DNA of 32,000 bases, taken from Puniceicoccales bacterium. GTDB lineage: Bacteria > Verrucomicrobiota > Verrucomicrobiia > Opitutales > JAIRLM01. Within the stretch, counting starts at the first letter, position 1. Every line of letters begins with the position of its first letter. Of the stretch, positions 1 through 13,835 are shown piece by piece. The notes under the pieces are model-generated. The model ran no database searches and was not told where the DNA came from. It saw nothing but the letters and a program-made list of their open reading frames with translations. The stretch covers positions 1-32,000 of the forward strand of contig JAIRXK010000028.1 in assembly GCA_031268315.1 (NCBI GenBank), read 5' to 3'. Made by a program: the position numbers and the translations under genes.

Positions 1-390
1 CCACGCCATCCCTAGGGGCCGGCCTAAAAATTCCGTTCCATAGGGCCCATTGCTCCGCCGAGCCGCTCTGCGGCAGGGAATTTCATAAAATCTTCGACTG
101 CTTTACCGGGGGATGCCCATGCAGTGCCATCATTCTCCGTTGTCCGGCCGTATCCATGGAATGTGGCCGGCGCCGCGGATGAATTGGCTGGCGCTTCCTC
201 GCTTTCCTCGGGACATGCCGCGGCTCTACCCGTGCGCGGAATGTGCATGGCGCGCCCAAGGCGTGGAAACCCTACGCGGGCATATGGCGAAAATTGGCAT
301 TTGCATGGGAGCACCTCTGCCGGCGCGGGCTGCTGTGGGATGGATTGCATTTTTGGGAAAATCTATCATCAAATGATGAATGATTACCCC
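1..390. other. GC-rich non-coding island; candidate structured RNA (identity unresolved)
   Basis: The region is visibly GC-richer than the rest of the window. The overlapping ORFs (24..350-, 113..376+, 124..429+) translate to Pro/Arg/Ala/Gly/Cys-rich strings with no recognisable domain. Several GC stems are present, e.g. CCGGCCGTAT (144-153) / ATGTGGCCGG (161-170) with a 7-nt loop. Confidence 0.3.
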
Positions 391-467
391 GCGTTTGGGC
401 CTCTGCCAAAGCGGCAATTGCCATTGTAATACTGGCAGTTAATCTTGGATTTTGAACTATGCGATCG
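391..467 (+). repeat. 77-bp repeat element, copy 1 (inverted partner at 13984..14061)
   Basis: The reverse complement of 391-467 aligns without gaps to 13984-14061. By hand count 68 of 77 positions are identical. The shared core is ATTGCCGCTTTGGCAGAGGCC. Confidence 0.85.
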
Positions 468-643
468 GGGTAATTAAAATTTGAAAAAATTCAGAAGAAG
501 ATTTTTTTAATTTCAAATCTGGGATTCGGCTAAGGCAGTGATTTCGATTGAAACATTAGCAATTAACCTTAAATTTTAAATGATGCAACCGATCGAATTT
601 TATGTATTGCGAACCATTGACTGCCGCACGAATATTGGAAAAT

Positions 644-1540
644 CTAGTGGGTAGAGGGAAGTTTAACATAGGCACGACCAGGAACAGTGAGATCAATCTT
701 TTGCAGTGGCAATTGATGTCGCCTACTTGCTTCCGCAAGAATATATTCTAATTTTTCAAATTGCTGCAGATACGCATCGTTTCGAAATAAAATGCTGCAT
801 ACATCATCGCCGTGAACCTCAATGAATGGCAACCGATTCATTAAATTATAAGCATCCTCATCGATGCGAATGCTACTCCATTTCTGAGCAATTAGTGGAA
901 TGCGCTTCCTAGCCAACGTCAAAAATCGTTCTAAATCCTTCACGTATGGAATGTGATCGCCGCAGATAACGCGACGGAGATCGACGGTGCCATCCAATAG
1001 GAGAATGGATTCAAATTCATCCTTCCCAGGGCCGACTCTTTCAAAAACATAGCCGCTTCCATCGACAAAATAGTAACCCTGATTATTCTCACGGCGAACT
1101 TTAAGTATGGGAATGCGCTCTCGCAATTGGATGCGCAGGGTGGACGGATAAATTCGTTCCACTTCAACTTCGCAGATTTGTGATGCCCGCAGGAGCGCAT
1201 TGCGGCAATATTTGACATCGATACTATCTAGGTCCGTTTGCTTTTGGAGGTGCAATATGCGTAGCACCCAATTTCGGTCCAACGTGCCATTTGTGAAAAA
1301 TTCAATGCGCTGCACTTGATGAGGTATCCCCAAATATTTTTTTGACCCTGGCGAGATGTTGGATCCGACGAAAAACCACAGAAAAGATACAGCCAACAGA
1401 GAAAAAAAGAGGATGCCAATACTTCCCTTTTTTGGCGTCTTTTTCACTCCAGTTCGTGACTTGGATACTTTTTTTAATTTTTTCGAACTACGCAATGGCT
1501 TGGATGTCCTTGAATTGCTTTTTCTGCCCTTTGCCGTCAT
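644..1540 (-). CDS. ftsQ: cell division protein FtsQ (POTRA domain)
   Basis: 298-aa ORF. It has a Lys/Ser-rich N-terminal tail, one hydrophobic helix (GILFFSLLAVSFLWFFVG), then a POTRA-like segment (IEFFTNGTLDRNWVLRIL...YPSTLRIQLRERIPILKV). Its ATG overlaps the ddl stop in an ATGA junction at 1537-1540, the classic ddl-ftsQ order. Confidence 0.8.
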   Translation of the reverse strand: MTAKGRKSNSRTSKPLRSSKKLKKVSKSRTGVKKTPKKGSIGILFFSLLAVSFLWFFVGSNISPGSKKYLGIPHQVQRIEFFTNGTLDRNWVLRILHLQKQTDLDSIDVKYCRNALLRASQICEVEVERIYPSTLRIQLRERIPILKVRRENNQGYYFVDGSGYVFERVGPGKDEFESILLLDGTVDLRRVICGDHIPYVKDLERFLTLARKRIPLIAQKWSSIRIDEDAYNLMNRLPFIEVHGDDVCSILFRNDAYLQQFEKLEYILAEASRRHQLPLQKIDLTVPGRAYVKLPSTH

Positions 1541-2523
1541 TGGGATATCAGCCTAGCTAAGGCAGGACTGACGATTTTGCAAACTAAATCTTCCACCTTC
1601 ATGCCGGCCCCAATGGCGCTGTCTGGGTAAAAACTTGTTTTCGTAAATCCAGGAATGGTGTTAATCTCTAAGAAATAAATTTGCTGTGCCGGGCCGAGGA
1701 TGAAGTCAATGCGCGCCCAATCCTTGCAATTGCAGGCGGAAAAAATCGTACGAGATAATTGAAAAATTCGATCTCTCAATCCATCTTCCAGCGGCGCCGG
1801 AAAAATGTGTTGCACGTGGCCAACGCAGTATTTTGCCCGATAATCAAGAAACTCTCCTCGCGGAATTGCGAGTACGATGGAAAGCGGATTCCCATGAAGC
1901 ACTCCGATGGTCAAATCTTTTCCTTCGCCCAATGGTTCAAGCATCCATTGGCCGCTGAAGATGGGTCGGACCCATTTATTCCATTCGGCTTCGCAGCAAA
2001 TTTTATGGCAATGAATGCTACTGCCTTTATTACGCGGCTTTAGAAAGAGTGCATCCGTTGCAAGTTCTGAGCAGACTTTCTTGAAGGAAAACCTTTTGTG
2101 TTCATCTTTCTCAAATAAAACCTCGGGAAAGACTGGGATGGAAAAATTTTGCAGCCACTCCTTCGTTTTGCTCTTATCGACGGTTAGCTGCATCGCCTTG
2201 GGTCCGCTCCCTATGTAGACATAGTCGCCACGGTCCAACATAACTTGCAGCTGACCATCTTCACCAAAATCTCCATGAACCATGGGGAAAATAAGAGATC
2301 TTTTATGATCAATTCCATCGGGTAATTCATTGTGTGCCAATTCAATCAGTCGCACGGAATAATTTTTTGACAGATATTTTTCCATGTTCCGTCCGGAACG
2401 TAGAGATACTTCCCTTTCTCCGCTGATGGCTCCGCTGAGAATTACAATTTCAAAGGGCGAGTGTAAGATTTTGTCCACGCCCACGGCACCACTGCTGCTA
2501 TGCAAATACATCCTTTCAATCAT
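1537..2523 (-). CDS. ddl: D-alanine--D-alanine ligase
   Basis: 328-aa ORF with an ATP-grasp layout and typical Ddl motifs (GEREVSLRSG near the N-terminus, HGDFGEDGQLQ, FLEINTIPGFTKTSFYP near the C-terminus). It is translationally coupled to ftsQ. Confidence 0.9.
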   Translation of the reverse strand: MIERMYLHSSSGAVGVDKILHSPFEIVILSGAISGEREVSLRSGRNMEKYLSKNYSVRLIELAHNELPDGIDHKRSLIFPMVHGDFGEDGQLQVMLDRGDYVYIGSGPKAMQLTVDKSKTKEWLQNFSIPVFPEVLFEKDEHKRFSFKKVCSELATDALFLKPRNKGSSIHCHKICCEAEWNKWVRPIFSGQWMLEPLGEGKDLTIGVLHGNPLSIVLAIPRGEFLDYRAKYCVGHVQHIFPAPLEDGLRDRIFQLSRTIFSACNCKDWARIDFILGPAQQIYFLEINTIPGFTKTSFYPDSAIGAGMKVEDLVCKIVSPALARLISQ

Positions 2524-2887
2524 TTTCTCTCAGACTGTGGCAAGAATGCAATCTAATAGAAAATTTTGTAATTTTTATCAGATTAGGGCGAATGCTTTTG
2601 ATTATTTTTTTATCAATGATTGTCGCCAATTGGACTGTGCAGGCAAGCCCCTCAATGGCAGGATGCTACCATTGAAAATTTCCTATGCGCCTTAAACGCA
2701 ATAGCTTACAAATAGTTACGAATTCACTTACTGGCCGTTGAACCTGAAATATGGTTCTACTTTAAATGGAATGAAATTTCGCAAGTGGCTCGCTGATACG
2801 GAGTTTCCGATCGCAAAAAAAAGATGGTTTCGCTATGACGAGATGACAAAGCATCGAAAGTATATTCGATATTTTTTCAAAAAGCAG

Positions 2888-2916
2888 TTGACAACGGCAC
2901 TTGAAATACATTAAAT
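2888..2916 (+). promoter_or_regulatory. candidate sigma-70 promoter upstream of rsmH
   Basis: TTGACA (2888-2893), a 17-nt spacer, then TTAAAT (2911-2916), in the ddl/rsmH divergent intergenic region. Confidence 0.4.
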
Positions 2917-3080
2917 CATAGCGTTAGCGTTTGATTATGTGCGTAAATTTTCATCCTAAGTCATTCTTGGCCGACTTTCAACCCGTCGTAGGTCTTTGGG
3001 CAAGAGATCTTTCGCGTATAAAAAAGAAGCTGGACATTTTTGGGGAAGTTTATCATTTGCAGTGGAACCATAGTTCGGCC

Positions 3081-4016
3081 ATGCAACAAACAACACATAT
3101 TCCCATATTTCTCGATGAAGTTATTGGCAGTTTTCGCCTCACGGCGGGACGCACTTTTCTCGACGGCACCCTGGGAGGATGCGGCCATGCGGCGGCAATA
3201 CTTCAGGCGTTCCCCATGGCCCGTCTCTGGGCCATGGATGTGGATCCCGCGGCCATTGAAAGAGGGAAAAATCTTTTACCGGCGGATCGTGCAACGATTA
3301 TTCACGGTAATTTTTCTAACCTAGACCAATTGGATCGGAAAAATTTTGACGGAATTTTGTTGGACATAGGAGTTTCTTCGGACCAATTAGATACTCCGGA
3401 ACGGGGATTTTCTTTTCGCAGCGATGGGCCATTAGACATGCGCATGGATCCATCCCAGGGTATAAGTGCGTCTCAATTTCTAAAAACGGCAACGAGAGAA
3501 GAGCTTATCCATGCAATACGCGACTTCGGCGAAGAACCTTGCTGGAGGCGAGTGGTTGATGCCATTGTCGATGCGCGAAAGACGCCGCATACTCTAGAAC
3601 GAACGACATCATTTGCCAATCTGATGTGCCGTGTACTGCCATCAAATTATCGCAGCAAGGTTAGCCCCGTTACTCGAACATTTCAGGGAATTCGCATTGC
3701 AATCAATGGAGAGCTCAGTGCCCTGGAATATGCCCTACCTAAGGCGTTTGCCGCGCTTAATCCGTGTGGAGTCATTGCCATTTTGACCTTTCATTCCTTG
3801 GAAGATCGCATCGTTAAGCAGCATTTTCGCAACTGGGCCGGTATGTCCATCGATCGCCACGACGGACGCAGTCAGCAGGACCGATTTTCCCACGGGCGCA
3901 TTCTGACGCCGAAGCCCATCGTTCCGTCGCGGCACGAATTGAATCTAAATCCGCGCAGTCGCTCGGCCAAGCTTCGTCTATTTCAAAAAAAAGTGGAGGA
4001 TGTGGATAGAAAATGA
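3081..4016 (+). CDS. rsmH: 16S rRNA (cytosine1402-N4)-methyltransferase RsmH/MraW
   Basis: MQQTTHIPIFLDEVI...LDGTLGGCGHAAAIL...DIGVSSDQLD...RGFSFRSDGPLDMRMD matches RsmH from its canonical N-terminus. The track ORF starts at 2931 (TTG), but the extra 50 aa have no RsmH counterpart, so the ATG at 3081 is preferred. Confidence 0.9.
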   Translation: MQQTTHIPIFLDEVIGSFRLTAGRTFLDGTLGGCGHAAAILQAFPMARLWAMDVDPAAIERGKNLLPADRATIIHGNFSNLDQLDRKNFDGILLDIGVSSDQLDTPERGFSFRSDGPLDMRMDPSQGISASQFLKTATREELIHAIRDFGEEPCWRRVVDAIVDARKTPHTLERTTSFANLMCRVLPSNYRSKVSPVTRTFQGIRIAINGELSALEYALPKAFAALNPCGVIAILTFHSLEDRIVKQHFRNWAGMSIDRHDGRSQQDRFSHGRILTPKPIVPSRHELNLNPRSRSAKLRLFQKKVEDVDRK

Positions 4017-4396
4017 AACTCCGCCAATTCAGATTTCCATTTAGCCTCAGCGGTCGCATTTTTTGGCTTGTCACTGCGGTGCTATTTTTGGGAAATTGGA
4101 TTGGCTGTGCATTTACCCACGTGTGGTATCGGCAAAAAATTTTTTCAGTTGGCCGCGAAATTCGCACCATTGAGGCGGAAGCAACTCTTCTAGGCCGAAA
4201 AAATGCCGATTTGAGGGCAAAAATTGCACAAATCCACAGCCCATCAATCCTTAAAAGCTACGCGCTGGAAAATTTTCATGAACCCAGTTTGAACAGTTAT
4301 ATGCGTGTGTCCCAAGAAGATATTCGCGGTTTTCAGCAGCGCATGGCACAGTCAGCCGAAGAAATTCCAGCGCATGGTAAAAAGCACCTGCGCTGA
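4013..4396 (+). CDS. ftsL: FtsL-like small bitopic cell division protein
   Basis: 127 aa with a single N-terminal TM helix (IFWLVTAVLFLGNWIGCAF) followed by a short coiled coil (REIRTIEAEATLLGRKNADLRAKIAQI). The ATGA overlap with the rsmH stop puts it in the conserved ftsL position. The call rests on architecture and synteny, not sequence identity. Confidence 0.6.
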   Translation: MKLRQFRFPFSLSGRIFWLVTAVLFLGNWIGCAFTHVWYRQKIFSVGREIRTIEAEATLLGRKNADLRAKIAQIHSPSILKSYALENFHEPSLNSYMRVSQEDIRGFQQRMAQSAEEIPAHGKKHLR

Positions 4397-4426
4397 CATT
4401 GGAAAATTTAATGTGTCTGGTCCATA

Positions 4427-5479
4427 CTACTGTACGTTGCCGTTATTCGACAGCTCCGCGCATTTTTTTTCCAAGGCATCCACACGGTGAAAAAGCTTTG
4501 GAATGTGCCTACGTAATACATAAAAGCGATTAATTTCGCCAATGGGCATTGCCGGTGTTCCACGGACGGTACAGTGGGGCTCAATATCGCTTGAAATACC
4601 GCTCTGTGCGGCAACTAGAACTCCATCTCCAATGGAAATATGCCCGGCGATGCCTGCCTGCCCAGCAAGTACCACATAATTTCCGATGGTAGAACTGCCG
4701 GCAATGCCTGTCTGCGCCACGATGATGCATCCTTGTCCAATGTGTACATTATGCCCAATTTGAACCAAATTATCAATTTTCGTTCCTTGCCCAATGCGCG
4801 TTTCTGCAAAGCGGGCGCGATCTATGGTAACATTGGCGCCAATTTCTACGTCATCTTCGATGATTACCTGGCCGATGTGGGCGAGTTTTTGATGAACCCC
4901 GCCGACGGTTTCGTAGCCGAAGCCATCTGAACCGATGACGCTACCACTATGAATGATAACCCTTTCACCGATTTCACTGAACGAGTAAAGGGTTACCCTG
5001 GGCTGCAGGAGGCCATGGGCGGCAATTTTGCAGCAATTGCCAATGTAGCAGTGGGCCCCAATGGAGACATTCTCTCCAATGACAACGCCTTCCTCAATGA
5101 CGCAAAATGGTCCAACGGAAGCGGTTCGATGAACCTGCGCTTCGCCGTCGACAATTGCGGTGGGATGAATTCCCGAAGGGCATTTTTTTTCGCGGCAGTG
5201 TTCGATAACTTTGCAAATTTTCGCCAGGGCCAGCGATGGATTTTCGATGAAAAAATAAACCTGATTGTCCCTGGGTTTACCTTCAAAATTGAGTGGAACG
5301 AGAATGAGAGATGCCTGTGACGATGCCACCAGTGACGTATATTTTCCGTTTCCTAAAAATGAAATATTACCTCTTTCAGCGCATTCCAGCGAAGCAATTT
5401 CGCCCAGTTCCCCAGAAAACGATCCCTCAATGCGGATCGGGCTCAGCAGTTCAATTAACTCTTCCGTTAAAAAATGCAT
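4427..5479 (-). CDS. lpxD: UDP-3-O-acylglucosamine N-acyltransferase
   Basis: 350 aa. It has the LpxD-type N-terminal domain ([24 protein letters not shown]), then a long left-handed beta-helix of hexapeptide repeats ([14 protein letters not shown]..., [10 protein letters not shown]..., [22 protein letters not shown]). Confidence 0.88.
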
Positions 5480-5582
5480 AGATGTACACTAGGAAACGGT
5501 GTGGCGCTTACAAAATGATCCCATTGGCACACTTCCAAAATCCAACGTCTAGGTCGAAGCGCCCTGCGAGTCGAAGGGAAGC

Positions 5583-5840
5583 CTAGGCGAAAATGAGAGA
5601 GGAAAGTGCCGATTTAGCGCGGCGGGCCTTATTTGCGTGAATAATACCGCGTTTCACGGCCTTATCCAGAGCAGAAACGTAGGCAATGGCTGCCGATTTT
5701 TCATCGGAACTATTCTCGCCTGTTCCACGCACCCTCACTTTTTTTGCGAGGGTTTTTAGCTGCGACTTAGCCGCCTGATTTCGCATTGTCCGCTTTGCAA
5801 TTCTGCGGATATCTTTCTTTGAAGATTTAAGATTAGCCAT
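5583..5840 (-). CDS. rpsT: 30S ribosomal protein S20
   Basis: 85 aa, very basic. MANLKSSKKDIRRIAKRTMRNQAAKSQLKTLAKKV is the typical S20 N-terminus. Confidence 0.92.
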   Translation of the reverse strand: MANLKSSKKDIRRIAKRTMRNQAAKSQLKTLAKKVRVRGTGENSSDEKSAAIAYVSALDKAVKRGIIHANKARRAKSALSSLIFA

Positions 5841-5951
5841 GGTATTTCACTCCGTGATGGGGCAGTGGAAATTTCTTTTCAGAGCAAGTCAACTTTTTTT
5901 TTAAATTTTATTCGAAAATTTGCCATTGTCGTGAAAATTCCAAAAATTTTT

Positions 5952-5981
5952 CTAAAAAATGGCCGCCGAAAAAACGGCGGC
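5952..5981 (-). terminator. rho-independent terminator after module 1
   Basis: Minus strand reads GCCGCCG-TTTTTT-CGGCGGC followed by CATTTTTTAG. The stem is at 5962-5968 / 5975-5981, downstream of the stop at 6145. Confidence 0.6.
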
Positions 5982-6144
5982 AAAAAAAATCAGCGGCCGC
6001 GCGGGTCAAGTGGCGCCACTGCTTGATAAAAAGTTTTCGATACTGAGAGCATTTGCAGTGCCACCTTTCCATCGCCTTTTTTTTTGATTCAACGGTTGGC
6101 ACGCCAAATTTTAAAAAAGCGAAGAATGCTTGCTGCAAGTATTT

Positions 6145-7158
6145 TTATTTTCCGAATAAGCGTTGAAAAAAATTTCTTTCCGATGCTTGCCTTTTCATTT
6201 CCGCCGCTTCTGCCTCTGCTTGGCGTATTATTTCTTCCGCACGATGTTTTGATTGCCTTTCCATTTCCGCTAAATTGAGTTGTGCCTGTCGGATTCTTTC
6301 AGCGTTCTCCACGCGGCCACGCTCAAGACGAGCTTTGGCTTGCTGACATTCCTCTCTGACGGCAATCAATTCTGGCCGATCGGACGGTGCATACTTTGGC
6401 CAAGTTTTTTCCCATGGCCAACGATTTTTTGCATGGGTTGATTTCCATGGGCTCGGCTCAAATAGAACCAATGACGTCTCTTCCATAAATTTTTCCCATT
6501 CCTCTGCGATGTCGATGTCCTCACTTATGTGAATAATATCATCAAAGCGTGTATTCTCTGGCAATGTTCCCGATCGTATGCCTTCTGCCTCCGTTTTAAT
6601 TTTATCAATTTTGGCAGCAACCTCACCTTCAATCTTAGCAATTTTTGCGGCGGTTTTAGCTTTGCATCTAGCTAGACTCTCCTCCGATCTTTCCCTCGCA
6701 TCGGCACTTTCTTTGTCAATTTGATCGTAGCGGCGAATAAACTCCACTTCATCCTGAGTCATCGGTATGACGCTTCTGCGGGTCGCAGGATCCGCTATTC
6801 TCCTCATTCTTTCCTCCTGTTGTTTGTGAACTTCAGGTAGCGCATAGTGTACGTTACGCCGGACAATATCTTCGGCTTCACTAAAGGAGTGACCTTGCTT
6901 TTCCGCATCCATAAGCCACTTTCTAATTGGCATTTGCAATTCCGGATACCACAGCAACCACCCAATAATACGACACCTTCTCATATCATCGTCGGCCGAG
7001 TTATAGTTGTCATAGGGAGTTCGATTTTGCGAAGATTGCGGATTTTTTCCCGCTGCTGCATTTTCCGCCTGTGGTTCGCGATATTGTACTGGACAATTGA
7101 TGCCCGTTTTTCCTGAAGCATTCATCTGTAATTTCCTTAGTATTTTTTTATTCATCAT
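6145..7158 (-). CDS. hypothetical coiled-coil protein B1 (paralog of 10605..12350); MinD-like amphipathic C-terminal tail
   Basis: 337 aa from the ATGATG at 7158/7155, which overlaps the stop of the upstream gene. The track start at 7263 would overlap that gene by 115 nt. No signal peptide. A conserved YPE...P-x-TR-x-x-(I/V)-P block is shared with B2. The Glu/Arg/Ala-rich coiled coil ends in ...ERNFFQRLFGK. Confidence 0.8.
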   Translation of the reverse strand: MMNKKILRKLQMNASGKTGINCPVQYREPQAENAAAGKNPQSSQNRTPYDNYNSADDDMRRCRIIGWLLWYPELQMPIRKWLMDAEKQGHSFSEAEDIVRRNVHYALPEVHKQQEERMRRIADPATRRSVIPMTQDEVEFIRRYDQIDKESADARERSEESLARCKAKTAAKIAKIEGEVAAKIDKIKTEAEGIRSGTLPENTRFDDIIHISEDIDIAEEWEKFMEETSLVLFEPSPWKSTHAKNRWPWEKTWPKYAPSDRPELIAVREECQQAKARLERGRVENAERIRQAQLNLAEMERQSKHRAEEIIRQAEAEAAEMKRQASERNFFQRLFGK

Positions 7159-7708
7159 CACTGCTAATTCCGACAAAGACCCTTCCGAACCAACTTTGTG
7201 TGTCATATTTCGCTTGTCTCCGCAGCGTTGCAGCCCTAACGTTTGCCAGCATAGCTTCTGCATCTGCTTTAGCCTGTGCTATTGAGTTTCTTGCGTTAAT
7301 TTCAGCATTTGTCAATGCGATTTTTGCGGCGAATTCCGCATTAATCAGCCTTTCGTTTGCCCTTCCACAAGCAAGACTTACCTCATCAAATTTTTCCTCC
7401 TGCTTCATAACCGCTGCTATCGCATCCAACAAAGCGTTCCATATGGTGCATCGGCTTTCCTCATCCTTGGCAGCCAACCATACAGATGCGTACATTCCTA
7501 TGGTGGCTGCAGAGGCTGAGCGGCAATTTCCTACGGATTCGAGGAGAGATACCAGTGGTTGAATTTCTTTCAATTGATTAGACACCGCCATGTATTGCTC
7601 CGAAAAAACATTAGGAACATTCGGCCCCATTGCTTTAATCGCTTCGAATAGATCGGATTTCTCCTTTTGCAGATCAGCTGCATAAGTTTTAAGTGAAAAT
7701 ATAGACAT
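7148..7708 (-). CDS. hypothetical coiled-coil protein A1 (motif-level paralog of 12378..13835)
   Basis: 186 aa from the ATG at 7708, preceded by AAGGAG 6 nt upstream. The N-terminal ~110 aa are followed by an Ala-rich coiled coil. The C-terminus reads ...SWFGRVFVGISSDDE. No signal peptide. Confidence 0.8.
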   Translation of the reverse strand: MSIFSLKTYAADLQKEKSDLFEAIKAMGPNVPNVFSEQYMAVSNQLKEIQPLVSLLESVGNCRSASAATIGMYASVWLAAKDEESRCTIWNALLDAIAAVMKQEEKFDEVSLACGRANERLINAEFAAKIALTNAEINARNSIAQAKADAEAMLANVRAATLRRQAKYDTQSWFGRVFVGISSDDE

Positions 7709-8124
7709 ATAAGCTCCTTTACCTTGCGATTTGATTAATTTCTGCACTGCGCAGGAATTACCATCGTCGCTGTCTCACTCAACAGAAATTCTTTTAAGAA
7801 AGCACGCACTTTCTGTTTTTTTACAAAAAAAGAACAAATTCAAAAATTCTTCATTGGCTATTGCTAGAAAGCTGTTTTTTACTGATTAATTACACAAAAT
7901 AATTTGGTGATTTTTTGTTTGCGATGGATCCGGTCGCGTCGGCTACTTGCCCCAGAAAATTAGCGGATTTTTGCCATTGCCAAACGCCAAGTAATTGGGT
8001 TAGATTGAGCGAACTGTGAAATATTTCATAGCATTTACTGGACAGCAAGGCTCAAGTGACAACGGCAATTTTGACGATGCATTGAATGAGTCGTCTACCA
8101 TGGAGTTAGAGATGTGAAAATTTA

Positions 8125-9501
8125 ATGGAAATCATTGCAGAGAAATCCATCGATGGAAACGGAATTAATCCGCGCCTGATTGAAATTTGTTCGCAGATTC
8201 GGAACGCCGGGGGACGAGCCTATCTCGTTGGAGGATGCGTGCGTGATTTGTTGCTTCAAATTTCTCCAAAGGACTGGGATGTAGAGGTTTTTTCCATGGA
8301 CCCACCTGCATTGGAATCACTATTCGCCGGATGCATCGAGCCCGTTGGAAAAAGCTTCGGCATCCATCGATTTCGCCATTTTCCGATTGACATTGGGTTT
8401 CCACGCAAAGAATCAGCCATCGGGAGTGGCCATCGCGATTTTTCAGTTTCCATTGATCCCTATTTGCCGGTAAAATCGGCCGCCGCACGGAGAGATTTCA
8501 CCATCAATGCCATCTACTACGATCCTCTAGAACAATCCATCGAAGATCCGTTTGGCGGCGTGGAGGATTTGCAAGGAAAGTACCTGCGCCATGTTTCTTC
8601 GCAATTTTCCGAGGATCCGCTCCGCGTTCTGCGAGGAATGCAATTCGTCAGTCGCTTTGCTTTAACCGCTACAGCCGAGACAATTTCTCTTTGCAAGCAA
8701 TTAACACCGAAACATTTGTCCAATGAACGCATCTACTGTGAATTTTGCAAATTAATTTTGCTCGGGGAAAAAATTGGCGACGGCCTTGAGTTCCTGCGCC
8801 ATGCCAATTGGCTGCCATTTTTCCCAGAGTTGGAAGCGATGGAATCCTGCCAGCAGGATAGCGCATATCACCCCGAAGGCAGCGTTTGGAATCACGTCAA
8901 ATTCGCCACCGATGCCTTTTCCCGATTTCGACCCCATGGCGAATGGGATGCTTTGGTGACCGGATTCGCCGTGCTATGCCATGACCTTGGCAAGCCTCTG
9001 TGTACCCGTTGGAATGCGGCGGGACGCATCTGCGCTAGGGGCCATGACCGGGCGGGAATTCTTCCAACCCAGCAATTTCTCAGTCGGGTGAATGCACCCC
9101 AGGCACTCGTCGAAGAAGTTCTACCACTGGTAGAATTCCACATGGTACCGCGCACATTTGCCGATGGGAAAAATGCCACCGCCGCGTCCCTCAATCATCT
9201 GGCAAATTCCGTCAAGCGCATCGATCGGCTACTTGTAGTTGCCCGCTGCGATCGATCGGGACGCAGCGACCACGTGCCTAGTTTGGTTGGCGAAGATCGC
9301 CTAGAGGCCATGGCCAAGGAGGCGAATCTATGGACAAGTTCGCCGGTGCCCCTCATTCACGGCAGAGATCTTCTGGAGCATTTTCGACTGACTCCATCGC
9401 CAAAAATAGGAATCTTGGTAAAGCAAATCTATGAAGCCCAATTGGATGCAAAATTTTCCTGCTACGAAGATGCACTTGCCTATGCGAGAAGCCTAATCTA
9501 G
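8125..9501 (+). CDS. cca: CCA-adding tRNA nucleotidyltransferase with HD domain
   Basis: 458 aa. The Pol-beta type head is GGCVRDLLL...DWDVEV...RRDFTINA. A C-terminal HD domain follows (YHPEGSVWNHV...LCHDLGK). Confidence 0.88.
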   Translation: MEIIAEKSIDGNGINPRLIEICSQIRNAGGRAYLVGGCVRDLLLQISPKDWDVEVFSMDPPALESLFAGCIEPVGKSFGIHRFRHFPIDIGFPRKESAIGSGHRDFSVSIDPYLPVKSAAARRDFTINAIYYDPLEQSIEDPFGGVEDLQGKYLRHVSSQFSEDPLRVLRGMQFVSRFALTATAETISLCKQLTPKHLSNERIYCEFCKLILLGEKIGDGLEFLRHANWLPFFPELEAMESCQQDSAYHPEGSVWNHVKFATDAFSRFRPHGEWDALVTGFAVLCHDLGKPLCTRWNAAGRICARGHDRAGILPTQQFLSRVNAPQALVEEVLPLVEFHMVPRTFADGKNATAASLNHLANSVKRIDRLLVVARCDRSGRSDHVPSLVGEDRLEAMAKEANLWTSSPVPLIHGRDLLEHFRLTPSPKIGILVKQIYEAQLDAKFSCYEDALAYARSLI

Positions 9502-9567
9502 CGGTGACCTGCATACTATCGCGAATTTAATCGTTGGAGTTTAAGCGTATGCAGCGAGTCGTATTTT

Positions 9568-9620
9568 GCGGAATCAAAAAATGCCGATGAAGGCAAAATT
9601 TCAATTCCGCGTTTTTTCAT
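9568..9620 (+). terminator. hairpin/T-tract between convergent cca and 9622..10338
   Basis: GCGGAAT (9568-9574) pairs with ATTCCGC (9604-9610) and is followed by GTTTTTTCATTTT. An inner TGCC..GGCA hairpin has a T-run on the opposite strand, so it may act in both directions. Confidence 0.45.
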
Positions 9621-9621
9621 T

Positions 9622-10338
9622 TTAAGCGGTTACTATTTCCTCGCAATTTACATAATATGCCATCCCTTGCACTTGCACGGGCATTGCCATGGATTGGGGA
9701 TAGCCACCTGCCGTTGCTATGTTTACAGCAGGCGGTTCATAGTGAAATTGCTCTTCGATGGCGGCAAAGTACCTCATTTTCTGATTTCCTCTGCAGCGGG
9801 CGCGTATTTGGCCAACCGCCAGCGCAGCACCTACAGCAATGAGGCCGTATCCAAGAATGGAAAGTATACCTTCATCCGTATCGTAGGCAACCCCCGCAAC
9901 GGCAATTCCCGTTATAATCAGTACCATATTGCAGCACATTGATATGCACGGGCGATATACCCATTTAGCGCCGCAACAATAACTATGGGATGCTTCCACT
10001 TCCTCAAAAAAAAGCCGCTTTTGTTCAACGGCAAGCAAGGGATCATTTTCAACTGCGGTTCGCAGTGCCGTGAGGGACATTTCAGTATTAGCATCTACAA
10101 TGTCCCCATACCTTTTTTTTATCTCCGCAAAGTGAGGCGCTCCATTTTCCCTAAAGATGTCCGGATAGCGCTGACTTGCGTAATTAGCTGGAACGGTGGG
10201 CGTTACCCCGCCCGCGAACCCAACTGGGCCATAGTTGGATGGAACCATTGGCACCATACCCCCAGCAAATCCAACCACACCAAAATTGGAGACGGCCGCG
10301 CCGTCGTCCGAACGAATTACATTTATTCTATCTGCCAT
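9622..10338 (-). CDS. hypothetical membrane protein with central two-helix hydrophobic hairpin
   Basis: 238 aa from the ATG at 10338, with GGAGG 7 nt upstream. It has a tandem 17-aa repeat VGFAGGMVPMVPSNYGP / VGFAGGVTPTVPANYAS. The hydrophobic segment is NMVLIITGIAVAGVAY-DTDEG-ILSILGYGLIAVGAALAVG. There is no N-terminal signal peptide. Confidence 0.8.
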   Translation of the reverse strand: MADRINVIRSDDGAAVSNFGVVGFAGGMVPMVPSNYGPVGFAGGVTPTVPANYASQRYPDIFRENGAPHFAEIKKRYGDIVDANTEMSLTALRTAVENDPLLAVEQKRLFFEEVEASHSYCCGAKWVYRPCISMCCNMVLIITGIAVAGVAYDTDEGILSILGYGLIAVGAALAVGQIRARCRGNQKMRYFAAIEEQFHYEPPAVNIATAGGYPQSMAMPVQVQGMAYYVNCEEIVTA

Positions 10339-10394
10339 TGACTGACCTCCGGCGCGATTTCGCAAAATTTTTTTTCAAAATAAAGCTTATTTTA

Positions 10395-10415
10395 CGCATT
10401 AGCAGTTTTATAGCA
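10395..10415 (-). promoter_or_regulatory. extended -10-like block shared with the 12378..13835 upstream region
   Basis: Gene strand reads TGCTATAAAACTGCTAATGCG, against TGCTATATTTTCGCTAATACG at 13925-13945. In both cases it is preceded by AAAATGTAAAAA and a (T)GCCAA motif. Confidence 0.35.
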
Positions 10416-10479
10416 TTTGTTTCTCAAATTCACATTTTTACATTTTATTAGCATTGGCCATGCAAGCACAGTAATGAGC

Positions 10480-10523
10480 CCAAAAAACTAACACCGCCGC
10501 GCATTGATTCATCGCGCGGCGGG
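10480..10523 (-). terminator. rho-independent terminator after module 2
   Basis: Minus strand reads CCGCCGCGC-GATGAATCAAT-GCGCGGCGG followed by TGTTAGTTTTTTGGG, about 80 nt downstream of the 10605 stop. Confidence 0.7.
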
Positions 10524-10604
10524 ACGACTTATCGCCAATTGGTGGCATTCATATATCTTACTATTTTGCTTTAAAACGATGAAACAGCCACATAAAAAAG
10601 ACCT

Positions 10605-12350
10605 TTATGTAACCGAACAACCCCCTTGATCTTTTTTTTTATGCATTTCATTTGCTTGTCCAAACTCTTTGTCCATTTCTAATTGATCATTTTCCTTCTG
10701 CATCTTTTTTGCAGAATCGGCTTTTGCTTGAATTTGAGCAAGGATATCGATTTTATATTTTTCGAGAACTTCATCGCTATTGCTTCGAACTTCAATAATT
10801 CCACTTTCTTCTATTTCAAACTCTTTGCCCATTTTTAATTGATCATTTTCCTTCTGCATCTTTTTTGCAGAATCGGCTTTTGCTTGAATTTGAGCAAGGA
10901 TATCGGTTTTATATTTTTCGAGAACTTCATCGCTATTGCTTCGAACTTCAATAATTTCACTTTCTTCTATTTCAGCTCTATCCGCGTTCATTTGATCACT
11001 GGCAATTTCATTTGCTAATGGAGCAATCTCACTATTTGCTTCACTGGCAATTATAGTTACGGGCATGTTGCAGCCCATATTATGCCTTCTCCGGCGCCCA
11101 CGGCTTTTCTCTATGAATTTACTCGTCTTCTCATCGGTGGTTAAATCCTGACCCATATCCGCTTGATTCACAATTTCGACCTTAAAGCTCTCCAGGACTA
11201 AGCGCGGTGCGGGTGAACATGGGGATTCACTTTCTTCAAGTTTGCATTCATGGACATTTTTCTTACTTTCAAGTTTAGCACGAAGCTCAACCATTTTACG
11301 TGCATGGGCAGCTTTTTGGGTTTCTTCTACTTTGCTCAAGGCACCTAACTCGGCTGCAAACTCGGCTGCAAACTCGGCCATGCGATTTGCTAAGGCTACC
11401 TCACGGGCTTTGGCCGTTTCCTCAATCGCAAGTCCTCTAGTCTTAATCTCAGCCATACGATTAGCATGAGCGTCTTCATTGGCTTTTCTCTTGATTGCAA
11501 GCTCAGCCAGTTTATTTTCATTGGCTTTGCGCATGCTCGCAATCTTAGCCACTTCGTTTTCATGGGCGACCTCATTGGCTTTGCGCATTTCTTCGACCTT
11601 AAGTTTGCTACTAGCCTCAATCTCAGCCAGTTTATTTTCATTGGCTTTGCGCATTTCTTCGACCTTAAGTTTTCTACTAGCCTCAATCTCAGCCCGTTTA
11701 TTTTCATCGGCTTTGCTCATGATTGCAAGCTCAGCCATACGATTAGCATAAGCGTCTTCATCGGCTTTGCGCATGATTGCAAACTCAGCCTCACGGGCTT
11801 TGGCCGTTTCCTCAATCGCAAGTCTTCTAGTCCTAATCTCAGCCATACAACTAGCATAAGCGTCTTCATTGGCTTTGCGCATGCTTGCAAGCTCAGCCAG
11901 TTCATCTTCATTGGCTTTGCGCGCTTCTTCGGCCTTAAGTTTGCTACTAGCCTCAAACTCAGCGCGTTGTGCATCTGTTTTATTCAGTGTATCTATCAAC
12001 CTGCGTTCATGTTCATTTCGAGGAACAATGTGTGCGCGAGTTTTGGGATTGTGAATCATTTCTTTTCGCTGGTCACGTGCAGCACGTATCTCATCGACAC
12101 AGCTGTCAATTTCCTTTCGAATGATAGCCGATGCCTCGACGATGTGATCATTGTCCCAGCCAAGCTCATCAAGCCGCTGTATTATAAAATCGTAGCACTC
12201 TGGATAGGCTGATCCGTAGCTCACAAGACAATCTCTCGCAGATTTAATTTGTCCCGGCGTATGCGGAATGTGTCTGCCAGCCGAAGAAAAATCTCCTCCG
12301 TGAGGTTCTCTTTTCTGAGTGCTGTTAACTCTAACAATTGGAAAGTTCAT
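10605..12350 (-). CDS. hypothetical repeat-expanded coiled-coil protein B2 (paralog of 6145..7158); ends KKKDQGGCSVT
   Basis: 581 aa, with AGGAG 8 nt upstream of the ATG. The N-terminal Q-x-REP and YPE...P-x-TR-x-x-V-P block aligns without gaps to B1. The centre consists of degenerate RKANE(D/N)xxAE heptad-like repeats. Two nearly identical 52-aa C-terminal repeats follow. No signal peptide. Confidence 0.85.
   Translation of the reverse strand: MNFPIVRVNSTQKREPHGGDFSSAGRHIPHTPGQIKSARDCLVSYGSAYPECYDFIIQRLDELGWDNDHIVEASAIIRKEIDSCVDEIRAARDQRKEMIHNPKTRAHIVPRNEHERRLIDTLNKTDAQRAEFEASSKLKAEEARKANEDELAELASMRKANEDAYASCMAEIRTRRLAIEETAKAREAEFAIMRKADEDAYANRMAELAIMSKADENKRAEIEASRKLKVEEMRKANENKLAEIEASSKLKVEEMRKANEVAHENEVAKIASMRKANENKLAELAIKRKANEDAHANRMAEIKTRGLAIEETAKAREVALANRMAEFAAEFAAELGALSKVEETQKAAHARKMVELRAKLESKKNVHECKLEESESPCSPAPRLVLESFKVEIVNQADMGQDLTTDEKTSKFIEKSRGRRRRHNMGCNMPVTIIASEANSEIAPLANEIASDQMNADRAEIEESEIIEVRSNSDEVLEKYKTDILAQIQAKADSAKKMQKENDQLKMGKEFEIEESGIIEVRSNSDEVLEKYKIDILAQIQAKADSAKKMQKENDQLEMDKEFGQANEMHKKKDQGGCSVT
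10662..10973 (-). repeat. 156-bp tandem duplication (2 copies) inside B2
   Basis: 10662-10817 and 10818-10973 differ at 4 of 156 positions by hand alignment. Each copy encodes (E/A)(F/E)(E/I)IEES(G/E)IIEVRSNSDEVLEKYK(I/T)DILAQIQAKADSAKKMQKENDQL.... Confidence 0.9.
11470..11960 (-). repeat. degenerate in-frame repeats (RKANE motif) inside B2, including a near-perfect 66-bp doublet
   Basis: CATTGGCTTTGCGCAT recurs many times. 11575-11640 and 11641-11706 are 66-bp units differing at 2 positions, each encoding ASSKLKVEEMRKANENKLAEIE. The outer boundaries are approximate. Confidence 0.75.
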
Positions 12351-12377
12351 ACCTATTCTCCTAGTTGAAGCATTCTA

Positions 12378-13835
12378 TTATATGGCATTGCAGAAATTCT
12401 CATCGTCGAGATCTCTATTCTGGAGCCTTGCCCTTCTGGCCTGCTGCTTTCGCAATTCCACATCGGCCTTCACTTCTTCCCGCCGAAGGGCAATTATTTC
12501 CGGATCGCTTTCAAGGGCCGCTCTTGCCGCTTCTCGAGTTGCCCTTGCGTCACTTTCATTTGCATTGGCCTTTGCTTGGCGCAACCTTTCCTTTGCTTCG
12601 CAAAGTTCCACCTCCGTTTTGTTCTTTTCTGCGTTAGCTAAATCCACTTCTGCTTGAAGCAGATTTGTTTTCACATTTATTTTGCTCAATTCTGCCCTAG
12701 CTTTACCTAGCTCCAATTCTGCCCTTGCCTTGGACTGCGCTGCGTCTGCCCTAGTCTTTTCCTCTTCCGCCCTAGCGGCATCTTTGGCTTGCTCTAGTGC
12801 AACTTCGGCTTGAGCGGCATCCATTTCCGCCTTTTTCTTGGCCTCCTGAAGTTCAAGCTCTGCCTTTTCTACCTCTATCTTAGCTTGTTGAAGTTCCACC
12901 TGAGTTTTCTCCGCTTCCACCTTAGCAGCATCTTTGGCTTGCTCTAGTGCAACTTCGGCTTGAGCGGCATCCATTTCCGCCTTTCTTTTTGCCTCTTGAA
13001 GTTCCACCTGAGTTTTCTCCGCTTCCGCTTTAGCAGCATCTTTGGCTTGCTCTAGTGCAACTTCGGCTTGAGCGGCATCTGTTTCCGCCTTTTTCTTGGC
13101 CACCTGAAGTTCTAAGTCACATTGTTCCCTAGCTCGTTGAAGTTCCATTTTAGTTTTCTCCGCTTCCGCCTTAGCAGCATCTTTGACTTGCTCTAGTGCA
13201 ACTTCGGCTTGAGCGGCATCTGTTTCCGCCTTTTTCTTGGCCGCCTGAAGTTCCACCTGAGTTTTCTCCGCTTCCGCCTTAGCAGCATCTTTGGCTTGCT
13301 TTAGTGCAACTTCGGCTTGAGCGGCATCCTTTTCCGCCTTCTTCTTGGCCTCCTGAAGTTCGAGGTCAAATCGTTCCTTGGTTTGCTGTAGTTCCATCTG
13401 GGCTTTCTCCACTTTCGCCTTAGCGGCATCTTCGACTTGCTTGGCCTTCTCCTCGGCTTGTTTTCTCACCGATGCTGACTCTGCCGCCATTTCGTCGGTG
13501 AATTCCTTGATGGCATCGGGAAGTCTTGCAAGAGCATTGGCACGGGTGCCGGCCTGCTCTTTATCATCCTTGTCAATGGACGCGTAGAGATAACACTGCA
13601 TGGCCAGATTTTTGAGTGCCGGCGAACCGGATTCATGCGCAAATGCAACCAGCCACATTTGACTATTTAATTGAAGTGTTTTGGTGTAAACATTTTTCCA
13701 AAACTTCAATAACTCCACATTGTTGCCGCAATTTCGCATTTCTGCTTTTGCATCATTGAGCGCCGTATTCACGGTGGTCTGTATAGCCATCAGTGTCTGC
13801 GAGTCAACATTTTTTATTTCACTATTTCCACTCAT
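12378..13835 (-). CDS. hypothetical repeat-expanded coiled-coil protein A2 (motif-level paralog of 7148..7708); ends DDENFCNAI
   Basis: 485 aa, with GGAAAGGA upstream of the ATG. A ~110-aa N-terminal domain is followed by Ala/Glu/Lys repeats of the unit DAAQAEVALEQAKDAAKAEAEKTQVELQEAKKKAE. No signal peptide. The gene lies 27 nt upstream of B2. Confidence 0.85.
   Translation of the reverse strand: MSGNSEIKNVDSQTLMAIQTTVNTALNDAKAEMRNCGNNVELLKFWKNVYTKTLQLNSQMWLVAFAHESGSPALKNLAMQCYLYASIDKDDKEQAGTRANALARLPDAIKEFTDEMAAESASVRKQAEEKAKQVEDAAKAKVEKAQMELQQTKERFDLELQEAKKKAEKDAAQAEVALKQAKDAAKAEAEKTQVELQAAKKKAETDAAQAEVALEQVKDAAKAEAEKTKMELQRAREQCDLELQVAKKKAETDAAQAEVALEQAKDAAKAEAEKTQVELQEAKRKAEMDAAQAEVALEQAKDAAKVEAEKTQVELQQAKIEVEKAELELQEAKKKAEMDAAQAEVALEQAKDAARAEEEKTRADAAQSKARAELELGKARAELSKINVKTNLLQAEVDLANAEKNKTEVELCEAKERLRQAKANANESDARATREAARAALESDPEIIALRREEVKADVELRKQQARRARLQNRDLDDENFCNAI
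12720..13440 (-). repeat. in-frame tandem array of 108-bp units with 33-42-bp insertion variants inside A2
   Basis: The motif GGCTTGCTCTAGTGCAACTTCGGCTTGAGCGGCATC (with minor variants) recurs at 12786, 12936, 13044, 13185 and 13293. The spacings are 150, 108, 141 and 108 bp. The outer boundaries are approximate. Confidence 0.85.

Follow-up and report, generated by a model that had tools for sequence, protein, structure and literature searches.

Host prenylation of bacterial effectors that end in a CaaX box is established for AnkB and PelC/PelE of Legionella and for GtgE of Salmonella, the box being usable solely by eukaryotic farnesyl- or geranylgeranyl-transferases and fixing such proteins to host or vacuolar membranes on their cytosolic side (PMC2916131, PMC13081727, PMC13423502). 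The tail of Legionella AnkB differs between strains, with a farnesylation motif in one case and a di-lysine ER-retention motif in the other (PMC5506055). Amphipathic helices can also serve as C-terminal membrane-targeting sequences (MTS), that of E. coli MinD being KGFLKRLFGG (PMC5471200). Here, we have analysed a stretch of DNA of 32,000 nt (the window) that carries two gene pairs, A1-B1 and A2-B2, whose products compare with these systems in several respects.

The A and B proteins resemble the host-prenylated effectors (L. pneumophila AnkB and Pel proteins, Salmonella SifA and GtgE) in having a terminal C-a-a-X, often past a polybasic patch, and the strain divergence of the AnkB tail parallels the alternation of CaaX, amphipathic and TM tails in the A and B families. 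However, they share no sequence or fold similarity with those effectors, come from Verrucomicrobiota with a presumed protist host and a probable type III rather than Dot/Icm system, and occur as conserved A-then-B pairs, their prenylation being predicted from the motif. The tails of B1 and of an A protein at another locus (L001) match the MinD MTS at 5-6 of 10 positions, and those of A1 (SWFGRVFVG..) and P0004, the closest B1 paralogue from the same MAG, share its basic, aromatic character; the remainder of these proteins is nevertheless unrelated to MinD/ParA ATPases or actin-like FtsA, homologous positions bear CaaX in other members, and membrane binding is putative. Like chlamydial Inc proteins and the helical type III effectors of PVC bacteria, A and B are lineage-specific, paralogue-rich, helical and found near type III genes, they come from a PVC-superphylum bacterium that would be intracellular, they would occupy the host-facing side of a membrane as Inc proteins do, and the two modules have a bilobed-hydrophobic 'hairpin' protein between them. 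A and B themselves, in contrast, have no bilobed hydrophobic domain, their anchors would be tails at the C-terminus of the lipid-box, amphipathic or TM kind, and no homology to Inc families was found.

A sequence-only reading of the window had described four minus-strand genes in two A-then-B modules, and all four open reading frames are present (Table 1). The gap between A and B, put at 27 nt or less, is borne out: the B2 ATG lies 27 nt past the A2 stop, with an AGGAG ribosome-binding site 7 nt upstream of B2, and the frames of A1 and B1 share 11 nt, or have 22 nt between them when the NCBI start of B1 (7125, which is 33 nt later than 7158) is used. Terminator-like hairpins do follow both B genes; that after B2 was read directly from the sequence, the limit of the automatic scan being a loop of 8 nt. 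A2 consists of the A-family domain, 36-aa tandem helical repeats and a CaaX box, and in B2 the B domain is followed by 22-aa and 52-aa tandem repeats and then by a polybasic KKK and CaaX tail. A1 comprises a divergent A-family N-domain, an Ala-rich helix and an aromatic/basic tail, and B1 a disordered N-terminus, the B domain, long helices and an MTS-like tail. The repeats of A2 and B2 had been recognised correctly, but the claim that module 2 is larger purely through them is only roughly true. The label 'coiled coil' is not backed by heptad periodicity, none being detected in the long repeats of either A2 or B2; these parts of module 2 are helices rich in Ala, Glu and Lys, with a 3.6-residue periodicity in A2 (z=9.9). 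As had been stated, none of the four proteins was found to contain a TM helix.

Table 1. Positions of the features of the two modules and of the genes between them.
Feature	Position	Strand	Description	Basis
A2 gene	12378..13835	-	485 aa	ORF
A2 N-terminal A-family domain	13461..13835	-	~aa 1-125	
A2 tandem repeats	12753..13441	-	36-aa repeats	
A2 CaaX box	12381..12392	-	C-N-A-I, then stop	translation; ORF tail scan
B2 gene	10605..12350	-	581 aa	ORF
B2 B domain	11940..12254	-	~aa 33-137	B-domain HMM, E=1.1e-31
B2 CaaX box	10608..10619	-	C-S-V-T, after HKKKDQGG	translation; ORF tail scan
Terminator-like hairpin after B2	10494..10522	-	CCGCCGCGC / 11-nt loop / GCGCGGCGG, then T-run	direct reading
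Hairpin membrane protein	9622..10365	-	247 aa; TM-like helices at aa 141-159 and 166-184	
cca	8125..9501	+	CCA-adding enzyme / poly(A) polymerase family	PF01743 PolyA_pol head domain, E=3e-20
A1 gene	7148..7708	-	186 aa; NCBI LBI69_03515	ORF
A1 A-family N-domain	~7373..7708	-	divergent	
A1 tail	7151..7195	-	SWFGRVFVGISSDDE; resembles MinD-type amphipathic MTS	pattern scan
B1 gene	6145..7158	-	337 aa; NCBI LBI69_03510	ORF
B1 B domain	6682..6963	-	aa 66-159	
B1 tail	6148..6177	-	RNFFQRLFGK; MinD-MTS-like	pattern scan
Terminator-like hairpin after B1	5962..5981	-	GCCGCCG/TTTTTT/CGGCGGC, then T-run	automatic scan

The 78-aa blocks said to be shared by the B proteins (from aa 71 of B1 and aa 49 of B2) match the translation exactly, with 19 of 78 residues identical and 35 positives. 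Their ungapped score (z=7.7) was reached by none of 10,000 shuffles, BLASTP aligned B1 with B2 at E=8e-6, and a Smith-Waterman alignment of the N-terminal regions gave z=9.6 with 0 of 1000 shuffles as high; judged by these alignments, B1 and B2 are true paralogues. The motif-level similarity proposed for A1 and A2 is not significant when the two are compared pairwise (E=0.54; z=1.2, equalled in 124 of 1000 shuffles). A profile built from A-type genes adjoining B homologues elsewhere, with A2 left out, scored 26.6 bits on A2 (0/2000 shuffles) and 11.0 bits on A1 (1/5000 shuffles, collinear over ~95 residues), and by this measure both belong to one A family. In all seven pairs examined from outside the window (L001, L002, L003, L005, L006 and L007 twice; the L003 A gene looks frameshifted), an A gene is the immediate upstream neighbour of B and shares its strand, and this conserved order, with the significant B paralogy and the A profile, upholds the view of two paralogous modules.

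An exhaustive HMM search of 1.84 billion representatives placed the B domain in only 33 clusters, which makes it a small family, and it is conserved over these and at least seven MAGs, with one Arg that never varies and four positions, Ile, Gly, Ile and Arg, that hardly do. All named members come from 'Puniceicoccales bacterium' MAGs, with at least four B paralogues in the window's own MAG and at least five in Cc175_bin8, and the proteins range from 113 to 581 aa. The sole source MAG of the family that could be traced is from the gut of Cc175, Cryptotermes cavifrons, a lower termite, and the bearers are probably verrucomicrobial bacteria of lower-termite guts (Puniceicoccales in NCBI, probably Opitutales in GTDB). 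The paper describing the MAG deposit also describes reduced-genome Opitutales of lower termites as putative flagellate endosymbionts (PMC11257099), and the window's MAG may share this lifestyle, going by that statement, which concerns the GTDB order Opitutales (families LL51 and UBA9783). In line with the earlier failure to assign a named family, no relative of A or B appeared in Pfam, NCBIfam, PADLOC, PHROGs or the PDB sequences, and both appear to be previously undescribed, lineage-specific families. The B domain is modelled by AlphaFold at pLDDT 96.5, and a Foldseek search of this model, as had been suggested, gave no match in the PDB (best E=5.3, TM<=0.37), with no syntaxin, lamin or golgin among the 32 listed. 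Full-length B1, predicted from its single sequence, has low overall confidence (mean pLDDT 62.6), with residues 12-54 below pLDDT 50 and helices modelled at 135-196 and 262-335. Golgin tethers, SNAREs such as prenylated Ykt6, nuclear lamins and Legionella LseA, which mimics such proteins, are likewise built of a helical domain at the N-terminus, a long helical stalk and an anchor at the C-terminus, either TM or CaaX past a basic patch. The likeness to A and B is one of architecture only, and the stalks of A2 and B2 differ from those of the eukaryotic proteins in their lack of heptad periodicity.

The most informative feature of the modules, overlooked until now, is their C-terminal targeting signals. 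A2 and B2 end in CaaX boxes, and Cys stands at position -4 in 11 of the 33 B proteins and in none at -1 to -3 or -5 to -8 (binomial p=2e-14, with an overall Cys frequency of 1.0%), the boxes being CLLF, CFLI, CLLV, CIVV, CLVA, CQVA, CDIA, CSVT, CSPA, CGVG and CGGS; an A homologue at L005 ends in CSVA. A1 and B1 have no CaaX box. MinD-like tails resembling theirs are found in the A protein of L001 (KGFFRRLFTSEEA, with KGFFRRLFTS) and in P0004 (KSFLGRFFRK), an (E/Q)KK(K/S) patch lies ahead of CaaX and MinD-like tails alike, and P0022 and the copies at L007 end in a TM helix. From these comparisons the tail type appears interchangeable among homologues, being a CaaX box, a MinD-like amphipathic helix or a tail-anchor TM helix. 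When the tails of all window ORFs of at least 100 aa were scanned, A1, B1, A2 and B2 were the only hits apart from one antisense ORF inside lpxD. Bacteria are not known to possess CaaX prenyltransferases.

The two genes between the modules are as had been proposed: the PolyA_pol head domain confirms cca, a housekeeping gene outside the A/B system, and the hairpin membrane protein does have two adjacent TM-like helices. The latter has no detected homologues and no match in Pfam or NCBIfam; bilobed-hydrophobic ORFs adjoin the A-B pairs of L003 and L007 and have no sequence similarity to it, and it is possibly a module-associated protein with Inc-like topology. No secretion system genes were found within the window. 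In the MAG that also contains L005, locus L007 has sctX (TIGR02502, 46.8 bits, cut-off 30) between two A-B-C triplets, which lie just upstream of sctY (NF052415, 68.7 bits, just under the cut-off of 70) and sctV (TIGR01399, 897 bits, cut-off 692). We take sctX and sctY to be typical of Ysc-type, not chlamydial, injectisomes.

Whether the proteins are secreted effectors or an internal scaffold had been left undecided. The CaaX boxes, present in A2, in B2 and in one third of the B family, the restriction to Puniceicoccales MAGs, one of them traced to a lower-termite gut, and the paralogous pairs that a related MAG carries within a cluster of type III secretion genes now favour the former, and we consider that the A-B pairs are probably type III-delivered effectors anchored to host membranes. 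Against this stand the lack of a secretion gene in the window, the score of sctY below its curated cut-off, and two of the 11 boxes (CGGS and CGVG), which are poor prenylation substrates. The MinD-like tails of A1 and B1, moreover, would be equally usable on the bacterium's own inner membrane, and A and B could be internal scaffold, cytoskeletal or division proteins tethered there like MinD or FtsA, with their stalks forming a sub-membrane lattice. The L005 pair lies directly after ddl-ftsQ, the usual place of ftsA-ftsZ, and the window pair is within 5 kb of ddl-ftsQ, with no ftsA ORF in the 643 nt present after ftsQ; this proximity fits a division or cytoskeletal role, as would the weak DivIVA match of A1 (E=0.27), were it not far under the cut-off. 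We regard such a role as unlikely, however, since Cys at -4 would have no known use in bacteria, genomes hold several divergent, repeat-expanded paralogues, unlike housekeeping division proteins, the family is confined to one host-associated lineage, and paralogues are embedded among sctX/Y/V.

That embedding could also mean that A and B belong to the secretion machine itself, as structural or accessory components comparable to translocators, tip proteins or gatekeepers that form pairs with a chaperone: the L007 triplets are interspersed with sctX, sctY and sctV or adjoin them, the L007 B copies end in a TM helix, and translocators are typically tandem gene pairs. This seems to us a poor prospect, as the copies in the window have housekeeping genes for neighbours and are distant from any type III gene, at least 4-5 paralogues of widely differing length occur per genome, most members have no TM segment, none resembles the SctE, SctB, SctA or SctW models, and CaaX tails point to host-side action. 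Exported fibrillar attachment proteins of the M-protein or adhesin kind, with C-terminal motifs unrelated to lipidation, would account for the long Ala/Glu/Lys-rich repeats of varying copy number, with the N-terminal domain as an adhesive head, but are very improbable given the absence of a signal peptide, TM segment, cell-wall or outer-membrane anchor and autotransporter or T1SS motif, anchors that are C-terminal and of cytosolic-face type, and a CaaX enrichment left unexplained. That these ORFs lack a coherent function, being orphans that evolve fast or sequences in decay whose similarity is compositional, as low-complexity repeats, the poor full-length B1 model and the seemingly frameshifted L003 A gene might suggest, is scarcely credible when the B domain is so widely conserved and confidently folded, shuffle controls exclude composition, and the genes have kept their order, their ribosome-binding sites and their terminators.

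In our reading A and B are co-transcribed, and each protein begins with a brief disordered segment, continues with a conserved helical N-domain (~95 aa in B and ~110-125 aa in A) and then with a helical stalk, rich in Ala, Glu and Lys, that varies and grows by tandem repeats, and ends in the membrane-targeting signal. If the pairs are indeed effectors, an injectisome-type type III secretion system would most likely carry them into a eukaryotic host, which is probably a flagellate of the gut, and there the CaaX cysteine would be lipidated by a host farnesyl- or geranylgeranyl-transferase, the amphipathic tail offering direct membrane insertion as an alternative. We infer this delivery and prenylation, as we do the membrane targeted, any binding of A to B and what the N-terminal domains do. 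With the tail lipidated or inserted, A and B would be held C-terminally on a host membrane, on its cytosolic side, for which the symbiont-containing vacuole is a candidate, and the stalks would keep the N-domains off the membrane, where they may be free to bind a host or partner factor.

The four minus-strand open reading frames that the sequence-only reading had grouped as A1/B1 and A2/B2 were all found where it placed them, and the two gene pairs it described stand up to inspection. The ATG of B2 lies 27 nt past the A2 stop and is preceded by an AGGAG ribosome-binding site, while the A1 and B1 frames share 11 nt or, with the NCBI start of B1, are separated by a 22-nt gap. Terminator-like hairpins do lie downstream of both B genes, the one after B2 having escaped the automatic terminator scan because of its 11-nt loop. 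The tandem DNA repeats (108, 141 and 249 nt in A2; 42, 66 and 156 nt in B2) were also recovered, as were the genes lying between the pairs, namely cca, recognised by its PolyA_pol head domain, and a gene for a 247-aa protein with two neighbouring TM-like helices. TM prediction returned no such segment in any of the four A/B proteins. A 10-mer common to the A1 and A2 upstream regions is within chance expectation.

The 78-aa block said to be shared by B1 and B2 is exact as quoted, with 19 of 78 positions identical and 35 positive, and its ungapped score (z=7.7) was reached by none of 10,000 shuffles. Full comparison agrees (BLASTP E=8e-6; Smith-Waterman of the N-terminal regions z=9.6, 0/1000 shuffles), and these alignments mark B1 and B2 as paralogues. 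The likeness claimed for A1 and A2 did not rise above shuffled controls in pairwise alignment (E=0.54; z=1.2), but both proteins join a common A family through a profile. The A-type genes upstream of B homologues elsewhere are mutually related (z=5-13), and A2 scores 26.6 bits against a profile of three of these outside genes (0/2000 shuffles); its placement in the A family by profile is therefore solid. A1 scores 11.0 bits against a seven-sequence A profile (1/5000 shuffles) and is collinear with it over ~95 residues. We regard it as a divergent member of the family, with profile score, gene position and tail as support.

Coordinates of the A-B pairs and associated features in the window and at outside loci (L-numbers), with non-CaaX tails; P-numbers are B-family proteins from the HMM search
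Locus	Feature	Coordinates	Strand	Remarks
Window	B1	6145..7158	-	337 aa; NCBI model LBI69_03510 begins 11 codons later; tail RNFFQRLFGK
Window	A1	7148..7708	-	186 aa; LBI69_03515; tail SWFGRVFVGISSDDE (includes SWFGRVFVG)
Window	B2	10605..12350	-	581 aa
Window	A2	12378..13835	-	485 aa
Window	Terminator-like hairpin after B1	5962..5981		automatic scan
Window	Terminator-like hairpin and T-run after B2	10494..10522		read from sequence
Window	Hairpin protein	9622-10365		TM-like aa 141-159 and 166-184, with six residues between
Window	(P)R[VI]E[EDH]xD motif	7050-7100; 12300-12330		also in P0004, P0009, P0019, P0026, P0031 and the L007 copies
L001	A; B	9350..9862; 10001..10378	same	A tail KGFFRRLFTSEEA (includes KGFFRRLFTS)
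L002	A; B	4180..4404; 4489..4932	same	
L003	A; B	9637..9969; 10001..10498	same	
L003	Hairpin-topology protein	11543-11950		
L005	A; B	about 5150..5799; 5818..6504	same	directly after ddl-ftsQ
L006	A; B	2831..3253; 3406..3837	same	
L007	A; B (pair 1)	2038..2757; 2770..3609	same	
L007	A; B (pair 2)	5197..5883; 6001..6675	same	
L007	Hairpin-topology protein	1421-1900		
	P0004 (closest B1 paralogue)			tail KSFLGRFFRK

As had been supposed, the proteins belong to no named family, since matches in Pfam, NCBIfam, PADLOC and PHROGs all fell far under their cut-offs. An identity as defence-system or phage proteins was rejected, with no match near cut-off in PADLOC or PHROGs. An exhaustive HMM search with a profile of the B1 and B2 N-terminal regions yielded 33 proteins among 1.84 billion cluster representatives (best E outside the window 8e-14), and it was this search only that uncovered the B family. 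A word-indexed homology search retrieved B1 alone when queried by B1 and only 4 proteins when given a 32-sequence profile; a scan of metagenome contigs with the B profile gave no relatives, and one of genome contigs with a narrower B alignment gave one locus. The IMG names of two of the proteins, P0010 ('nitrate reductase alpha subunit') and P0024 ('archaellum component FlaC'), are evidently spurious and probably stem from low-complexity matches.

The conserved B domain spans ~95 aa, with the consensus YPE..I..(x)..G....E.E..V..E......I.AeR.ER.R.I.DP.TR..V.P....E..L., in which one Arg is invariant and Ile, Gly, Ile and Arg positions are nearly so. Modelled by AlphaFold with the family alignment, it forms a compact four-helix domain (pLDDT 96.5, pTM 0.77), for which Foldseek found nothing closer in the PDB than E=5.3 and TM 0.37. 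Searching PDB sequences with the domain profile returned designed helical repeats only (E about 0.01, best 0.009), and the 32 domain sequences hit no recurring Pfam family. For full-length B1 a single-sequence model reached only pLDDT 62.6 and, being poor, was left out of the fold search. The A and B domains are thus far without named relatives, and the B domain, although confidently modelled, has no structural match in the PDB. Ahead of the domain, the disordered N-termini (the first 20-50 residues) of at least seven B-family members carry the short motif (P)R[VI]E[EDH]xD, for example PRVEEPD, PRVEHPD and PRIEEPD. The Q-x-R-E-P motif noticed earlier is present as QYREP in B1 and QKREP in B2 and looks like a degenerate form of it. 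The motif could serve in secretion, chaperone binding or host binding.

The description of the repeat regions as coiled coils fared less well. No heptad periodicity was found in A2 or B2, where the 3.5-residue power of a Leu/Ile/Val/Met/Phe indicator was equalled by 877/1000 and 702/1000 shuffles, respectively, and Kyte-Doolittle hydropathy at period 3.5 gave z of -0.8 and -0.5. The A2 repeats (12753-13441) are built of a 36-aa unit with a hydrophobic period of exactly 3.6 residues (z=9.9), a pattern pointing away from a classical coiled coil and towards a straight amphipathic helix or a bundle without heptads; the main B2 repeat is 22 aa (2 x 11). Only the B1 helices show a periodicity at 3.5-3.6 residues, and a weak one (reached in 5/1000 and 37/1000 shuffles; z=3.4 at 3.6). 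To judge from these periodicities, the A/B stalks should not be called simply coiled coils.

The key feature of the A/B proteins, their C-termini, had been missed in the sequence-only reading. The last residues are HKKKDQGG-CSVT in B2 and DDENF-CNAI in A2, both ending in CaaX boxes, which are usable by eukaryotic prenyltransferases alone; A1 and B1 have none. Across the B family, Cys occupies position -4 in 11 of 33 proteins and is never found at -1 to -3 or -5 to -8, an enrichment with a binomial p=2e-14 against an overall Cys frequency of 1.0%. The boxes are CLLF, CFLI, CLLV, CIVV, CLVA, CQVA, CDIA, CSVT, CSPA, CGVG and CGGS, many with a KK(K/S) patch ahead of them, and the A homologue at L005 ends in CSVA. 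Most non-CaaX members instead have basic/aromatic tails that resemble, at the level of motif only, the membrane-targeting sequence (MTS) of MinD, which in E. coli is KGFLKRLFGG (PMC5471200). In B1, A1 and the L001 A protein the last 8-12 residues combine basic with aromatic or hydrophobic side chains; other MTS-like tails are KKKFEVLFGWL, KKKSSWRLFPW and KKKFSLFGSLSFGKK. P0022 and the L007 copies have a C-terminal TM helix. Three predicted membrane-anchor types therefore interchange at one position among homologues. When all stop-to-stop ORFs of at least 100 aa on both strands of the window were scanned, CaaX or MTS-type tails were found only in the four A/B genes and in one antisense ORF inside lpxD.

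The A-then-B order is conserved in all seven pairs found outside the window, and tail types are mixed within pairs: at L001 an MTS-like A accompanies a CaaX B, and at L005 a CaaX A accompanies an MTS-like B. At L003 (9207-9969) the A-family profile matches two overlapping frames, so the A gene there may carry a frameshift, whether because it is a pseudogene or because of misassembly. The L001 pair, on a 268-kb contig of the Puniceicoccales MAG LBI34, lies 2 kb downstream of a giant ORF (1-7390) of more than 3050 aa that runs off the locus and has a DUF3638 domain.

Every named B-family member comes from a 'Puniceicoccales bacterium' MAG (locus-tag prefixes LBI69, LBF24, LBI34, LBH53, LBF26, LBB38 and LBS68), and in the window's own MAG, LBI69, the B paralogues number four or more: besides B1 and B2 they include LBI69_03350 and LBI69_01960, the latter ending in CFLI. 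L005 is on JAIRMB010000016.1 of isolate Cc175_bin8, Cc175 being the lower termite Cryptotermes cavifrons. Its accession falls within the range deposited by PMC11257099. That study describes reduced-genome Opitutales lineages with nucleotide transporters, confined to lower termites, as putative endosymbionts of flagellates. [quoted passage not shown]

On a second contig of Cc175_bin8 (L007, 46 kb; LBF24_03270; JGI 3300042590), a cluster at 1421-10074 contains two tandem A-B-C triplets flanking sctX, followed by sctY and sctV. SctX matches TIGR02502 at 46.8 bits (cut-off 30), SctY falls just below the cut-off of NF052415 (68.7 bits against 70), and SctV matches TIGR01399 at 897 bits (cut-off 692), with FlhA lower at 643 bits. 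Injectisome genes are therefore present in the lineage, with a physical link to the A/B family in one genome. Both SctX and SctY typify injectisomes of the Ysc type, which would be a hint of horizontal acquisition. The two C proteins (165-168 aa, 72% identical to each other) have no family assignment and no homologues in the window, in which no secretion genes were found. The L007 TPR protein matches SctY rather than SycD/LcrH. The L003 ATP-synt_ab protein, considered as a type III secretion ATPase, was rejected, its motifs being read as those of Rho. Type III secretion has already been reported in Verrucomicrobia (PMC3681970).

The main rival explanation is that A and B form an internal division or cytoskeletal scaffold, for which the MinD-like tails of A1 and B1 and the ddl-ftsQ neighbourhood speak. 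At L005 (3217-6504) the pair sits right behind ddl-ftsQ, a position usually occupied by ftsA-ftsZ; in the window, no ftsA or ftsZ ORF follows ftsQ within nucleotides 1-643. A scaffold would, however, leave unexplained the CaaX enrichment, the multiplicity of paralogues and the linkage to type III secretion. It is possible that the L007 copies belong to the secretion apparatus itself, given where they lie, but this would be an unlikely role for four to five or more variable paralogues per genome scattered among housekeeping genes. An identity as SctE/SctB translocators was rejected, with no TM segment in the window proteins, no adjacent TPR gene in the window and no model match. A surface fibril is a weak proposal for proteins with no export or anchor signals, and non-functional ORFs are hard to reconcile with a domain so strongly conserved and confidently modelled.

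A and B constitute a paired, multi-copy, lineage-restricted family with conserved N-terminal domains, repeat-variable helical stalks and interchangeable C-terminal anchors, one of them eukaryote-specific. On our preferred account both proteins would be exported into the cytosol of the host, with type III secretion as the probable route; there host enzymes would prenylate the CaaX members, and the others would insert through amphipathic or TM tails. A and B would then sit on a host membrane, at its cytosolic face, projecting their N-terminal domains on length-adjustable stalks. A bolder and, in our estimation, rather doubtful extension has the A-B pairs as effectors of verrucomicrobial protist endosymbionts, the first family of that kind to be recognised: type III-delivered, of a new helical fold, lipidated by flagellate prenyltransferases and anchored C-terminally. 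On that extension, both partners would form a coat or tether of repeat-tunable length on the host-facing side of the symbiont compartment; were the bacterium a relative of the intranuclear 'Candidatus Nucleococcus', the site could be the nuclear envelope. Neighbouring hairpin proteins would join A and B in an Inc-like interface that would have arisen independently of Chlamydiae.

Small proteins of hairpin topology occur beside A-B pairs at three loci, the window, L003 and L007. That in the window has the bilobed hydrophobic profile, two TM helices and short loop of Inc proteins, a resemblance of topology only. No sequence similarity was detectable among the three or with any family, and those of L003 and L007 have no homologues in the window. 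Elsewhere in the window, an IS256-type transposase (19465-20532; Transposase_mut, E=8e-54) among housekeeping genes indicates mobile elements in this presumably host-associated genome. Two proteins have no Pfam match: one of 933 aa (20964-23765) whose only strongly hydrophobic helix is N-terminal and pseudopilin-like, and one of 317 aa (25329-26282) with a signal-peptide-like start and an EFKF terminus like that of an outer-membrane beta-barrel. The Rfam scan of the window found tRNA-Ser only.

None of the known systems that A and B call to mind is homologous to them. Host-prenylated CaaX effectors of Legionella and Salmonella are closest by mechanism, the MinD/FtsA targeting helices resemble the A1 and B1 tails, and chlamydial Inc biology offers a like setting, with an intracellular bacterium of the PVC group, type III secretion and adjoining hairpin proteins. 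Prenylated bacterial CaaX effectors have precedents (PMC2916131, PMC13081727, PMC13423502, PMC5506055). As modelled, A and B would combine a new protein family and fold, and a new phylum and host type, with a known principle, and may add an uncultured protist symbiont of the PVC group to Legionella and Salmonella as a hijacker of host prenylation. The family also supplies a natural series in which three anchor types replace one another and a confidently modelled domain without structural relative in the PDB.

Termite-gut flagellates carry bacterial symbionts with a central role in the digestion of lignocellulose, but how these persist within their hosts has, to our knowledge, hardly been explained, and for those of verrucomicrobial affiliation we know of no described effector family. 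Among the few sequence marks that show a bacterial protein to act inside a eukaryotic cell is a conserved CaaX box, which here labels a multi-copy family of gene pairs; in a related MAG two copies lie amid genes for type III secretion. A and B offer concrete candidates, open to direct test, for the interface between termite-gut flagellates and their bacterial symbionts.
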